Below the pieces are notes generated by a model. That model did no database searches and had not been told where the DNA came from. It worked only from the letters and a program-made list of their open reading frames with translations. A DNA stretch of 35,194 nucleotides from a virus (Duplodnaviria > Caudoviricetes), in the IMG/VR virus record IMGVR_UViG_3300022741_000065, positions 1 to 35,194 of that record; one strand, given 5' to 3'. Below, in pieces: positions 12,885 to 16,757 of this stretch (positions are counted from its first letter, which is position 1; each line of letters begins with the position of its first letter). The translations under genes and the position numbers were made by a program.

Positions 12885-13028
12885 TATCCTGCGCAGGAGG
12901 TGCCTTCAATTCCTTCTCTCCTGCGGCCGATCCGGCTGGGATATCGAGAATGTGAATTCGCCCACCGGCGTGCCTTTGGCTGCTCGCCCGCCGTTCGTCG
13001 GCACGGTTCCTGGCTGCTGGAAAATTGG

Positions 13029-13253
13029 CTATTCGGCTTTCCGTGTGGGAGCAGATTTTTGGTGGTGTGGTGCAGCCCCGTCTATGGCCGCTCCGTCAAT
13101 CTGGTTGCGTACCCATCCCCCTCCGCCAAGGAGGGCGAGTTTGTCCCGTTGCGCCAGGGTCATGCGCAGGGAAACCGTTACCGTCTTCTCCCCTTCTCTG
13201 ACCGGCTTACGGCCCTGTCCTCGACCGGCACCGCCGCGCTTTGTTTCAGTCAT
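13029..13253 (-). CDS. Small DNA-binding protein (GGAGRGQGRKP hook + RHH-like), candidate Aca regulator
   Basis: 74 aa; TGATG-coupled to the acrIF11-like gene; basic hook, then beta-strand TVSLRM and helices. Confidence 0.65.
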   Translation of the reverse strand: MTETKRGGAGRGQGRKPVREGEKTVTVSLRMTLAQRDKLALLGGGGWVRNQIDGAAIDGAAPHHQKSAPTRKAE

Positions 13254-13681
13254 CAGGCCCGTTCCAGTTCGGGCTCGCGGCCCAGCATGTCGATCATGTA
13301 GCAAGTGCCTTGTTCGTCACGCATCGAAACCCCGCGATAGCCCAGAATCTTGGCAGCCTGAGCGGTCATGGCTTGGATGTCCCAGCTCATCTCGGCCTCG
13401 CCGCAGTCATCCTTCTGAGAAAGCATGGCTTCGGCGGTTTCTTCGTCGCAGCCGAGCATTTCCATGATCTTGGCAACCAGTCCGTCCAGCTTCGAAGCGT
13501 CAGCATGGTAGAAAAGCCGGCTGGCTTCGATGATCAGATCTTCCGGAACTCCAATCTTGTAAGTGACGTAGCTGCCGGCGGTCATTACGTATTCGTTTTC
13601 GGCGAAGCACAGGAACTCACCGAACCGTCCAGACTGATCAATCTCGGTGATTTCTATTGGGCTGCTGTGGAACAGTTCCAT
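13253..13681 (-). CDS. acrIF11: AcrIF11-family anti-CRISPR ADP-ribosyltransferase
   Basis: MELFHSSPIEITEIDQSGRFG and WDIQ...LGYRGVSMRDEQGT match the recalled AcrIF11 segments MELFHGSYEEISEIRDSGVFG and WELQ...LGYTSVEMEDEHGT; alternative start at 13693. Confidence 0.85.
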   Translation of the reverse strand: MELFHSSPIEITEIDQSGRFGEFLCFAENEYVMTAGSYVTYKIGVPEDLIIEASRLFYHADASKLDGLVAKIMEMLGCDEETAEAMLSQKDDCGEAEMSWDIQAMTAQAAKILGYRGVSMRDEQGTCYMIDMLGREPELERA

Positions 13682-13712
13682 GGTTGCTCTCATGCTTGGC
13701 TATGTCTATGTT

Positions 13713-13768
13713 TGTTATTGTAGTGCAAAATCAAAAAATGTCAAGATGTTATTGTAGTGCGAAATCAA
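13713..13768. repeat. 22-bp direct repeat pair across the acrIF11 promoter
   Basis: TGTTATTGTAGTGCAAAATCAA (13713-13734) and TGTTATTGTAGTGCGAAATCAA (13747-13768), one mismatch. Confidence 0.9.
13717..13744 (-). promoter_or_regulatory. Strong sigma70 promoter of the acrIF11 operon
   Basis: Minus strand TTGACA (13744-13739), 16-bp spacer, TACAAT (13722-13717). Confidence 0.78.
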
Positions 13769-13779
13769 TGCCAGTCGCT

Positions 13780-13807
13780 GCGATGTGAAATGCCGATTTC
13801 ACATCGC
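13780..13807. repeat. Perfect 12-bp inverted repeat between the divergent acr promoters
   Basis: GCGATGTGAAAT-GCCG-ATTTCACATCGC. Confidence 0.85.
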
Positions 13808-13829
13808 TTTCCGGGTAGGGAGAAAACTA

Positions 13830-13858
13830 TTGATTATACGTTTCTAAACACGTATGAT
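13830..13858 (+). promoter_or_regulatory. Sigma70 promoter of the aca4-like operon with an internal palindromic operator
   Basis: TTGATT-17-TATGAT; ATACGT-N8-ACGTAT (13836-13855) spans the spacer and -10. Confidence 0.8.
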
Positions 13859-13906
13859 CTGTTTCGTGGATGCGGTTAGCATTCACCCGGCCCGGCGGCT
13901 CCGGAG

Positions 13907-13938
13907 GTCGCGCCCCCAGCGGGCGAGGGGAATCAGAA
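13907..13938 (+). ncRNA. Solitary type I-C CRISPR-repeat-like unit (candidate Racr or Cas5-responsive leader)
   Basis: GTCGCGCCCCCAGCGGGCGAGGGGAATCAGAA versus the recalled I-C repeat GTCGCGCCCnnnnnGGGCGCGTGGATTGAAAC; CGCCC/GGGCG stem retained. Confidence 0.5.
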
Positions 13939-14250
13939 ATGGTCAAGATCATCAGCAGTCAGCACTTCCTTGATGACGAGATAGTGCAGTCCAAGGTGGA
14001 TGCGGCTGATTTCGTAGTGACGTTGTCGCCTGTGTTCGAGGTGGAAGGGGTTGTGGTTCAGGTTGTTCTGGATGGACACCATTCCTTCGCCGCTGCGCAG
14101 CGCGTGGGTGTAGAGCCGGAGTACGAAGTTGCTACCGTGCAGACCAATGACGCCATCAACCTCATTGCAGCAGATCCGGTTTCTTTCCTTGAAGCGGTCT
14201 GGGTGGATGGCGATTACTACGACGTGATCAACGGAGGTGATGTGTGGTGA
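13939..14250 (+). CDS. Small acidic ParB/Srx-like protein, candidate anti-defence gene
   Basis: VLDGHHSFAAA ParB-like motif; 103 aa; first gene of the operon ending in the aca4-like gene. Confidence 0.75.
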   Translation: MVKIISSQHFLDDEIVQSKVDAADFVVTLSPVFEVEGVVVQVVLDGHHSFAAAQRVGVEPEYEVATVQTNDAINLIAADPVSFLEAVWVDGDYYDVINGGDVW

Positions 14251-14579
14251 CTGACTACAGCGAAGAGCAACTCGGGGATATCCGGGTTCAGCCGCTCAAT
14301 TCGAAAACCAAAGGGCGTTTCAGCTTGGTGGTGGTTCAGCCGTCGAGCAATGAGCAGTTGCTGTTGCTTGAGCCTTGCGACTGGGACGTAGGCCGAGCGC
14401 GGGTTGTCTCGATGGTACGTGCTGGCGTAGATCCGGCGGACATCCGCTTTTCGTGGCGGGGTGATGGTCAGCTGAATACAGACGGCCTCCCGCTTCGCCC
14501 GTGCATGGAAGCGTTGTGGTGGACCGAGCGCGACCAGCGGCTGTTGGACAAGGAGCGGGAGGCTGAAAATGTCGGCTAG
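14244..14579 (+). CDS. Hypothetical protein, candidate Acr
   Basis: GGAGG RBS, overlaps the upstream stop; start at 14244 or 14247. Confidence 0.7.
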   Translation: MVTDYSEEQLGDIRVQPLNSKTKGRFSLVVVQPSSNEQLLLLEPCDWDVGRARVVSMVRAGVDPADIRFSWRGDGQLNTDGLPLRPCMEALWWTERDQRLLDKEREAENVG

Positions 14580-14859
14580 GTCGCTCACCATCAATCAGCG
14601 GCTGGGGAAAGCCAAGTCGTCAGCAGTCCGGCAGGAAATAGCCCAGGACTGGACGCGTAATTGGCACCAGGACCAGCGCCAGGCGGTGGAACTGCTTCTC
14701 CGCGCCATTGCCGTGCAGGATTGGCGCGAGGCGAGGTTCGCGGCGGATCAACTCGCAGGCATTACAGAGAAGAGGTTTTCTGCTCTGCCGCGAGTATTCG
14801 CCCAGGTAGGTGAAGTGCTGCCGCCTCCTGGAGCGCGGGCGGATGCCGATGACAGCTGA
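14569..14859 (+). CDS. Hypothetical helical protein, candidate Acr
   Basis: GGAGG RBS; 96 aa; directly upstream of the aca4-like gene. Confidence 0.7.
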   Translation: MSARSLTINQRLGKAKSSAVRQEIAQDWTRNWHQDQRQAVELLLRAIAVQDWREARFAADQLAGITEKRFSALPRVFAQVGEVLPPPGARADADDS

Positions 14860-15055
14860 GCAATTCGCTGCGTTGGCGACGCTGCTGCGCATGCGTGGCC
14901 CCTCACGGGAAGGGGCACGGCTTGTTCTCGTGGATGGGGTAGCGCCGTCTGCCGCGGCGAGGCAGGCGGGGGCCTTGCCCCAATCGGTCAGCGATGCGGT
15001 ACGCCGATGCCGCCGGGGACTTGATCTTGCGAGGCAGGCTGCGGGCTGCGGCTAG
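14843..15055 (+). CDS. aca4: Anti-CRISPR-associated HTH protein, Aca4-like (TrfB/KorA-type)
   Basis: MTAEQFAALATLLRMRGPSREGARLVLVDG...AAARQAG...QSVSDAVRRCRRGLDLA matches the recalled Aca4 MTEEQFSALAELMRLRGGPGEDAARLVLVNG...CRRGIELA. Confidence 0.85.
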   Translation: MPMTAEQFAALATLLRMRGPSREGARLVLVDGVAPSAAARQAGALPQSVSDAVRRCRRGLDLARQAAGCG

Positions 15056-15405
15056 GGGAGGTGCCCGAAGGGGAGGTCTTTGAAAATCTCGGCCTCCCCG
15101 ACGCCCCGCCGCTTTCCCTGCGCATTCTTTGTACTGCGGTTCATCTGGGGCGAAGGTGCAGGCTTGGGCTTCCTTGGTGTGAGGGCCTTGCGTAATTTCA
15201 CCAGCCGCGCAATTGCCTTGGCCTCGGGAAGTGTTGCAAGCAGCAGCAGCTCAAGAACAGATTCAGGTATCCGCCGGCCTTCTCTCTCGAAGCGGCTCCC
15301 ACCGCTCTGCGTGATCTTGAGTGCTTCCCAAAACTCAGCCTGAGTCAGATTCCGTGCGAGACGGATTTCTTTCGCTCGTGATCCCGTCAGACGTTCAACT
15401 TTCAT
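15052..15405 (-). CDS. XRE-family HTH regulator
   Basis: IRLARNLTQAEFWEALKITQSGGSRFE motif; 117 aa. Confidence 0.8.
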   Translation of the reverse strand: MKVERLTGSRAKEIRLARNLTQAEFWEALKITQSGGSRFEREGRRIPESVLELLLLATLPEAKAIARLVKLRKALTPRKPKPAPSPQMNRSTKNAQGKRRGVGEAEIFKDLPFGHLP

Positions 15406-15473
15406 GATGTATGAGTTCTGAAATATGACGCCGACCGCAATGGTAGCGTGCGGCCGAGCTGACGGGTAGGGCT

Positions 15474-16757
15474 TCAATCCGGCAATTCGCGCACCAGCAC
15501 TTCCAGCTCCATCGTAGTGGTGAGGCCCTGGCCATTGAGGCGGTGGGTGAGGCGGGCGATGATCCATTCCGCGCTGTCGATCTGGGGCTTCCAGCCGCTG
15601 GCCTTCACGGGTAGCTCGGGGATCAACTCCGGGCGCCCCTCGGCCAGGGTGATCTCGAAGCTGGCGACGCCGCGCTGCAGGCGTTGCCACTCGGCGCGGG
15701 CGGCGCGCTCGGCGTTGGCTTTGGTGGCGTAAGTGTGGCGCAGCACCTTGAGCCCGGTGGCGCTGGGCTCGGTGACGGCGGGCGGCTCGGGCAGCTTGTC
15801 GCTGCCGGCCAGCTCTGTGCCGCTCTTGCCGCCTTTCTTCTCCTTCCAGCTGACGCGCACGCCGGTGTGGGCGCGCTTATTGCCCTCGCGCTGGATCTTC
15901 TCCCACTCGTTGCGGGCACGTCGCGCGGCGGCCTTCTGGGTCGTGTAGACGTGGGTGATGACGCGCACGCCGCCGCTGCCGGGGGCCGGAGTGGGGTCTT
16001 CGTTGATGCCTTCGCCGACGAGCACGCTTTCGCGCGTGCCCTTTTTGGTGTCATGCCAGTAGGCGCGCACGCCGGTGTAGCTGTTGCGGTCTGCCACGGA
16101 GAAGGTGTGGCTGTCGCCGCTGGCGCGGGTGATGGTGACCGACTCCAGGGCCTTGCCGCTGGCGGTGATGGCATGGCCGATGGGGGTGAGCAGCAGCTTG
16201 GCGGCCTTGACGGCGGCGAGGCTGTCGAAGTCCCGCGCAAGGCGCGTGAGGAAGCTGATATCGCTCTCGTCGGTCTGGTCGATATGGGGCACGGCCACAT
16301 CGTCCAGGGCCTTGGCGATGACGGCGGCCAAGGCGTTGCGGCTGGCGATGGCGCGGACGATGGCGCCCAGGGTGGTGTCATGCCAGCTCTGCTCACGCTT
16401 GGCGGTGAGAGTGTCGCGTAGATCCGCCGAGGTGGCGCGGATTGTGAGCTGGTCAGGCGGGCCGGTGTGGGTGGTTTCGGCTACGGTGTAGCGGCCTTTG
16501 TCTTCCAGCGGCAGGCCATCCCAGCCCAGAGCGATGCGGATTTCGGCGCCGCGCGGGGGCAGGTCCAGCGAGCCGTCTGTGTCGTCGAGGGTGATATCCA
16601 GCTGATCCGCCTCTCCGCCGCGGTTGTCGGTGAGGGTGAGGTCGATGAGGCGGTTGTCCACCAGGTGGGTGATGTCGCGGCCGGCGACGCTGAGGCGGAA
16701 GGCGGGGCGGCGGGGCAGGGTGATCTGCCCGATGGCGCTGGCGGCGGGCTGGATCAT
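15474..16757 (-). CDS. D: Baseplate hub / late control protein D
   Basis: LTLTDNRGGEADQLDITLDD, KREQSWH, HIDQTDESD motifs; P2 gene order. Confidence 0.93.
   Translation of the reverse strand: MIQPAASAIGQITLPRRPAFRLSVAGRDITHLVDNRLIDLTLTDNRGGEADQLDITLDDTDGSLDLPPRGAEIRIALGWDGLPLEDKGRYTVAETTHTGPPDQLTIRATSADLRDTLTAKREQSWHDTTLGAIVRAIASRNALAAVIAKALDDVAVPHIDQTDESDISFLTRLARDFDSLAAVKAAKLLLTPIGHAITASGKALESVTITRASGDSHTFSVADRNSYTGVRAYWHDTKKGTRESVLVGEGINEDPTPAPGSGGVRVITHVYTTQKAAARRARNEWEKIQREGNKRAHTGVRVSWKEKKGGKSGTELAGSDKLPEPPAVTEPSATGLKVLRHTYATKANAERAARAEWQRLQRGVASFEITLAEGRPELIPELPVKASGWKPQIDSAEWIIARLTHRLNGQGLTTTMELEVLVRELPD

Follow-up and report, generated by a model that had tools for sequence, protein, structure and literature searches.

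The question raised by this locus is whether a solitary sequence resembling a type I-C CRISPR repeat, placed directly before a start codon in an anti-CRISPR island, derives from such a repeat and, if so, which role it plays. The window analyzed is the whole 35,194-nt stretch of IMGVR_UViG_3300022741_000065, and its coordinates are numbered from its first letter. It has a GC content of 66.8% and reads as a P2-like prophage, with families for integrase, primase, Ogr, tail, and P2 capsid in scans against Pfam and similar collections. An accessory island separates the repressor region from the tail genes, and there a 32-nt element (13907-13938) abuts the ATG at 13939. A preliminary description took this element as a mimic of the whole type I-C repeat in the leader of an aca4 operon and proposed for it either a new RNA anti-CRISPR (Racr) of type I-C or a sensor of host Cas5.

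The anti-CRISPR context of the island is real. The acrIF11 gene (13253..13693, minus strand) was recognized by NF052490 with an E-value of 2e-44 and 151.9 bits against a cut-off of 50, and it is divergent from an operon of four overlapping ORFs on the plus strand behind a promoter-like site. ORF1 (13939..14250) encodes 103 aa of PHROG 4807 with an invariant DGHH motif; a ParB/sulfiredoxin-like fold is predicted with weak scores (best E 0.038; best Z 5.8, rmsd 3.2 with 87 residues aligned), and the protein is considered a candidate anti-defense NTPase-like domain. No family was found for ORF2 (14244..14579, 111 aa) or ORF3 (14569..14859, 96 aa); distant relatives of ORF3 occur near ORF1 homologues in Blautia loci. 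The last gene of the operon (14843..15055) codes for an Aca4-like helix-turn-helix (HTH) protein of the KorA/TrfB type, which matches PF16509 (KORA) with an E-value of 5e-5 and 23.8 bits, below the Pfam cut-off of 26.7, and is 38-55% identical to TrfB-related plasmid proteins. The earlier label "aca4 operon", which would call for a KORA-type HTH protein of about 67 aa highly identical to the reference Aca4, expresses a sequence resemblance. In the part of PMC9410906 considered here, Aca4 proper is reported only in Pseudomonas; in acrIF11-aca4 loci, too, a single island combines a gene of the AcrIF11 family with an HTH protein of the KORA/TrfB type, about 70 aa long, whereas in the window the HTH gene ends the divergent operon and not that of acrIF11. 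In agreement with the earlier claim, none of the window's 46 ORF references searched against Pfam, or of the 10 searched against NCBIfam, gave a cas family.

Two 22-nt direct repeats, 95% identical, lie over the acrIF11 promoter (13713-13807), and a perfect 12-bp inverted repeat spans 13780-13807; both are candidate operators. A small ORF after acrIF11 (13029-13256, minus strand) has no Pfam match and looks by eye like a ribbon-helix-helix regulator; its relatives are divergent to ORF1 homologues in the loci L023, L085, and L133. With an E-value limit of 0.001, the ORF1 domain counts 302 representatives, of which many are fused within proteins of up to 1938 aa, and it is found again beside acrIF11 in L018 and L088.

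Transcription of the operon would start from a sigma-70-like promoter (13830..13858, plus strand), a consensus match at 9/12 positions with a 17-nt spacer, which lies 49 nt upstream of the element, in agreement with the earlier figure of about 50 nt; the predicted start site falls near 13864-13866. An inverted repeat over this promoter (13832..13859, 10-nt arms, 90% complementary) is a candidate operator for the HTH protein and has the layout of acr-aca promoters (PMC9410906). The transcript would open with H1, a 5′-terminal hairpin of 8 bp (13866..13886, plus strand), seven of whose eight pairs exceed a probability of 0.9 in the folding ensemble of the window. The inverted repeat over the promoter and the hairpin directly after the predicted start site would together constitute the Aca-type 5′ UTR layout. 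It has been reported that, in acr-aca operons, an operator over the promoter with hairpins right after the start site is common, that Aca2 binds two leader hairpins, thereby blocking the ribosome-binding site (RBS), and that Aca1 binds one (PMC13551039). The leaders bound by Aca2 and Aca1, and those predicted for Aca10 and Aca12, share with the window the operator, the hairpin after the start, a hairpin near the RBS, and the HTH gene in last position. Conversely, aca4 operons received no RNA motif in that study, and a repeat-derived hairpin is not described in the passages of it that are used here (PMC13551039).

After H1, a CCGG-flanked motif (13892..13904, plus strand) is similar to the core of a motif that recurs in leaders of ORF1 homologues. 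The folding z-scores of the leader range from -0.05 to 1.2, and an Rfam search over 13000-15600 gave nothing credible. The ORF1 start at 13939, and with it the position of the element against the ATG, is upheld by six homologues of 102-103 aa; the in-frame ATG at 13870 was rejected in view of these lengths and of a 1-nt deletion that breaks the frame in a related contig (X3, below). A pseudoknot in the window's own leader was also discarded: its match to the descriptor includes two G-U pairs and very short loops, and in X3 neither of the two helices is strong.

The resemblance to the repeat was measured against real arrays. Arrays of the type were present in 3/251 genomes, all three encoding cas5d, and the element matches their repeats at 24, 24, and 23 of 32 positions. 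A score of at least 24/32 occurred three times in 3e7 Markov-3 positions (1e-7 per position), and its probability is 3.4e-5 under a stricter null in which a random GC-rich 5-bp hairpin is joined to RBS tails taken from 81 actual ORF1 loci. In this comparison, proposed in the preliminary description, the element exceeds random hairpins. The next best 32-mer of the window reaches 21/32, inside the null range, and the earlier statement that no second full repeat exists is confirmed.

The likeness is concentrated in the 5′ part. The segment 13907..13925 (plus strand), with a 5-bp stem and a 5-nt loop, agrees with repeat positions 1-19 at 17/19, against 7/13 for the RBS and spacer (13926..13938, plus strand) that stand where the repeat has its 3′ 13 nt (Fisher p 0.038). 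Since 8/81 ordinary leader tails reach at least 7/13 in the same register, the extension of the match over 32 nt up to the ATG mostly reflects the composition of an RBS, and the claimed mimicry of the whole repeat stands for positions 1-19. Per RBS-adjacent hairpin, the null probability is 1e-4 for 17/19 and 5.5e-7 for 19/19, values based on three repeat types and applied after the fact; some chance matches are expected across the thousands of repeat types in a genome-wide scan.

All or part of the stretch is present in four runs. Two of these, X1 and X2, show no difference from the window and may be where it comes from, X4 supplies short pieces, and X3 contains a relative that shares about 90% identity with the window between 13830 and the end of the compared stretch. 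The element of X3 differs at loop bases 13917 and 13918 only, which makes its positions 1-19 identical to the array repeat of genome G244 (19/19 vs 7/13, Fisher p 0.002). It carries the same 3′ mismatches as the window, and since these are common to both, nothing pulls the handle back toward the repeat. Repeat-spacer-repeat contigs with the exact G244-type repeat are present in X1 and X3, with similar ones in X4 and none recovered from X2; the co-occurrence is at the level of the community, and the arrays of the first two runs may come from other organisms.

The 74-nt leader of X3 shows seven substitutions and one deletion. These 8 differences/74 nt correspond to the same rate as in the operon (128/1271), and this equal conservation gives no sign of selection on the hairpin. 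X4, which covers part of the leader, has six differences. No compensatory changes separate the window from X3, the one relative compared; changes fall in loops, linkers, and one wobble, and those in H1 affect a single loop base and convert one G-C pair into G-U. The homology of X3 begins exactly at the -35 box (13830), and for this reason the promoter, the leader, and the four ORFs may form one mobile cassette, while the link with acrIF11 may not be conserved. In a primase DNA search of 301 genomes, the best identities were 64-69%, in five of them, and no host was found; 1/401 genomes has a 33-nt match, outside the leader, and the 68 spacers of the reference arrays match the window over 12-16 nt only. 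BLAST of the locus or the leader against phages and plasmids returned nothing or short chance matches.

The preliminary description had suggested looking for conservation upstream of homologous operons. In all, 141 loci with an ORF1 homologue were collected, a figure that includes duplicates and a single copy of the window, and a repeat-like 32-mer (at least 22/32) was found in the leaders of 0/140 other loci. In L088, which has the closest island layout, acrIF11 and a KorA HTH gene are divergent from the ORF1 homologue, and the leader is without repeat-likeness. The ORF1 profile was positive in 1/251 and 5/199 genomes, all distant, with two genomes not scored. Two records of one contig (L039 and L120) carry a near-perfect repeat elsewhere than in the leader: it is a solitary I-C repeat of 31/32 (L039:4219-4250, minus strand), antisense inside the 3′ part of the ORF1 homologue and near the point where homology stops. 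This contig is absent from the table of solitary repeat units (SRUs) of the Racr paper as considered here (PMC10651486), and its repeat is a better SRU candidate than the present element.

A conserved leader upstream of ORF1 homologues consists of a 5′ hairpin and then a pseudoknot-like core before the RBS (e.g., L004:2525-2593, L020:3935-4003, L002:2930-3000, L091:922-999, and L092:563-642). One of its helices covaries, with six cells changed on both sides (0/500 shuffles); counted by pairs, only two covary (73/500 shuffles), and the sequences are related. The descriptor fits 10/102 other distinct leaders, and the model gives 18 matches of at least 32 bits in 82 loci, 15 of which are training sequences. 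An Rfam search of the homologue leaders returned only tRNAs and weak matches, and the structure is possibly an undescribed RNA motif. A second leader type, with the RBS in a hairpin loop, occurs about 60 nt before the ORF1 homologue in L001, L003, L008, L005, L009, and L010; the promoters of L001, L003, and L008 hold a palindrome, followed in L001 by a small HTH-like gene.

Against the model of the conserved leader, the window scores 7.5 bits (E 1.7), compared with 32-74 bits for members and 14.5 for a control leader, and nhmmer gives no match of the window leader to the motif. When the window is aligned to a covariance model from which it had been left out, an insertion comes to lie at about the 19-nt segment, and a matrix test yields 7.0 bits with a 19-nt insertion and 2.2 without, the null maximum being 7.9 in 5000 positions. 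The alignment and the matrix test are compatible with 19 nt inserted just before the RBS; the leader scores too low to be called a member. Among viral contigs, a pattern scan for the element or the neighboring motif gave no match, another gave 15 matches, none leader-like, and a third gave three, two of them degenerate arrays. Degenerate I-C mini-arrays were seen in the viral contigs L204 (1501-1532) and L205. The hairpin-RBS-ATG pattern occurred at one site in viral contigs and in 1/401 genomes, the latter with one control match, and neither site is a convincing leader. This rarity counts against easy chance and also against a widespread mechanism. In the literature searched, with most subscription papers outside its scope, neither a repeat-based UTR sensor nor such a pseudoknot was found.

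For two enzymes, recognition by Cas5c centers on the stem base and U22-G23-G24 and not on the loop or the 5′ overhang (PMC8524198, PMC5965381). Compared with the type I-C pre-crRNA repeat as presented in these papers, the element keeps positions 1-19, the 5-nt loop, G21, G23, and G24; it differs by C20A, which opens the stem, by U22G, by a handle of 6/11, by the lack of an array, and by an abnormal spacer length. The full hairpin described earlier is not kept: instead of a 7-bp stem with an intact base, C20A leaves 5 bp, and the basal pair has a probability of 0.00-0.23; in the ensembles of the window alone, the values are 0.05-0.23 for this pair and 0.37-0.82 for the top four pairs. Instead of U22-G23-G24 with the conserved 11-nt handle, G22 and the degraded handle are found. 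The upstream bases 13865-13871, earlier likened to a handle, match it at 5/11 and are held paired in H1, and the supposed pseudo-spacer of 29 nt departs from the 32-36 nt of 67/68 real spacers. As judged from the sequence, the conserved half is thus the part that Cas5c would ignore, and the diverged half (stem base, U22-G23-G24, and handle) is the part that it would read. It has been observed that U22G nearly abolished cleavage by BhaCas5c (PMC8524198), and recognition of the element is likely poor. It is still conceivable, since U22G only slightly reduced cleavage by SmuCas5c and C20G was tolerated (PMC8524198).

The best reading, which we favor tentatively, is that a repeat-derived stem-loop now serves as an ordinary UTR structure beside the RBS. 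The leader contains the 19-nt segment, has lost the stem-base pair and U22, and has an RBS in place of the handle. This arrangement may go back to recombination with an array that brought in either 19 nt immediately ahead of the RBS or a complete repeat, of which the 3′ end was later reshaped into the RBS. Transcription from 13830-13858 would produce a leader folding into H1 and the 5-bp hairpin. The latter could act in ORF1 translation or mRNA stability and, by analogy with Aca2 and Aca1 leaders, possibly offer a binding site to the HTH protein. The derivation from a repeat is supported by the confinement of the match to positions 1-19, by the loop bases of X3, which equal the G244 repeat exactly where the window departs from it, by the exact-repeat contigs that share runs X1 and X3 with the prophage or its relative, and by the covariance model, which puts the insertion at about that place. 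An ordinary structure is supported by the usual acr-aca layout of operator and start-site hairpins (PMC13551039) and by L088, whose leader is not repeat-like. Against this reading, X3 is the only informative relative, and the leader scores below the control. With the large number of repeat types and windows that a scan compares taken into account, we judge the origin of the element from a repeat to be probable.

The first alternative is chance, by which an ordinary GC-rich hairpin of a leader, with an RBS behind it, or a degraded copy of the ORF1-family leader motif came to resemble the I-C repeat. Indeed, in five genomes, a 14-base hairpin pattern was counted 0-3 times each, about the frequency of the reversed control. 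The 3′ match is ordinary, the z-scores and Rfam results single out nothing, the hairpin-RBS-ATG arrangement does not recur, and, within the leader, the core of the family motif finds its best local match in 13907-13925 too, at 3.3 bits only. Resemblance by chance is nevertheless unlikely in view of the null probabilities of 24/32, both per position and per RBS-adjacent hairpin, of the perfect 19/19 in X3, and of an acr gene 214 nt away.

An RNA decoy would be a second explanation: the leader, or a 63-nt piece of it (13865-13927) cut at 13927/13928, would bind Cas5c or Cas7c and drain type I-C Cascade. A precedent is RacrIC1, a published type I-C Racr on a transcript shared with an acr gene (PMC10651486, Camara-Wilpert et al. 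2023). As with RacrIC1 and other viral SRUs, a single I-C-like repeat lies in a prophage, solitary and with neither array nor cas genes nearby, behind a promoter within 250 bp upstream (here a consensus match), near acr genes (the acrIF11 start being 214 nt off), and on a transcript with protein genes (PMC10651486). The 63-nt piece approaches the length of a mature crRNA, which would be about 66 nt, one Cas5c tolerates the changes (PMC8524198), and matching arrays occur in the same communities. Conversely, RacrIC1 lies 11 nt downstream of acrIC5, whereas the present element is in a 5′ leader and is half a repeat with an RBS in place of the handle (PMC10651486). Measured against the three array repeats (the set of SRUFinder itself comprising 17,823), its identity is 75%, or 81% (26/32) in X3, below the SRUFinder rule of at least 90% identity and 90% coverage, and by such a rule half-repeat elements fall below SRU search thresholds. 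The 3′ variant is absent from the SRU table in file 3 of that paper (PMC10651486). The handle of 6/11, the 5-bp stem, an upstream region locked in H1, and a neighboring Acr family named for type I-F also speak against a decoy, which we regard as rather improbable. A half-repeat fused to an RBS is in this regard a variant of the known type I-C Racr theme.

A sensor is very doubtful. Host Cas5c would bind or cut the hairpin base within the RBS and thereby alter ORF1 translation according to the presence of a type I-C system. The expected cut, after repeat position 21 (13927/13928), does fall inside the RBS, 11 nt before the ATG, and the RBS is about half paired in the folding ensemble, hence shiftable. 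However, the same Cas5c determinants are lost, and the arrangement does not recur in the 140 other ORF1 loci or in the pattern scans. Moreover, with a cut the RBS would lose part of its sequence and Cas5c would stay bound to the remainder, so that an anti-defense gene would presumably be silenced just when CRISPR is present. We give equally little credence to a combined scheme, in which the phage captured a stem-loop arm of a host I-C repeat and rebuilt the handle as an RBS, so that Cas5c resets ORF1 translation and frees a crRNA-sized decoy. A guide RNA whose pseudo-spacer steers Cascade within the prophage was dismissed, as the best match flanked by TTC, the flanking motif used in this search, was 9/12 and nothing special. 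Overall, the link with the type I-C repeat and the anti-CRISPR context, with a divergent acrIF11 and 19/19 identity of X3 to an array repeat, fare better than the functional proposals of the preliminary description, which are weak given the loss of the bases read by Cas5c and the prior description of RacrIC1 (PMC10651486).

If Cas5c does act on the leader, phages could sense a CRISPR system through their own mRNA leader, by a switch fired by the very immune system that it reports on. If instead the reading of the element as a repeat-derived stem-loop turned ordinary UTR structure is true, the locus would be a small case of a phage recycling a CRISPR repeat as mRNA structure, and it would caution against taking every half-repeat next to an acr gene for a Racr.
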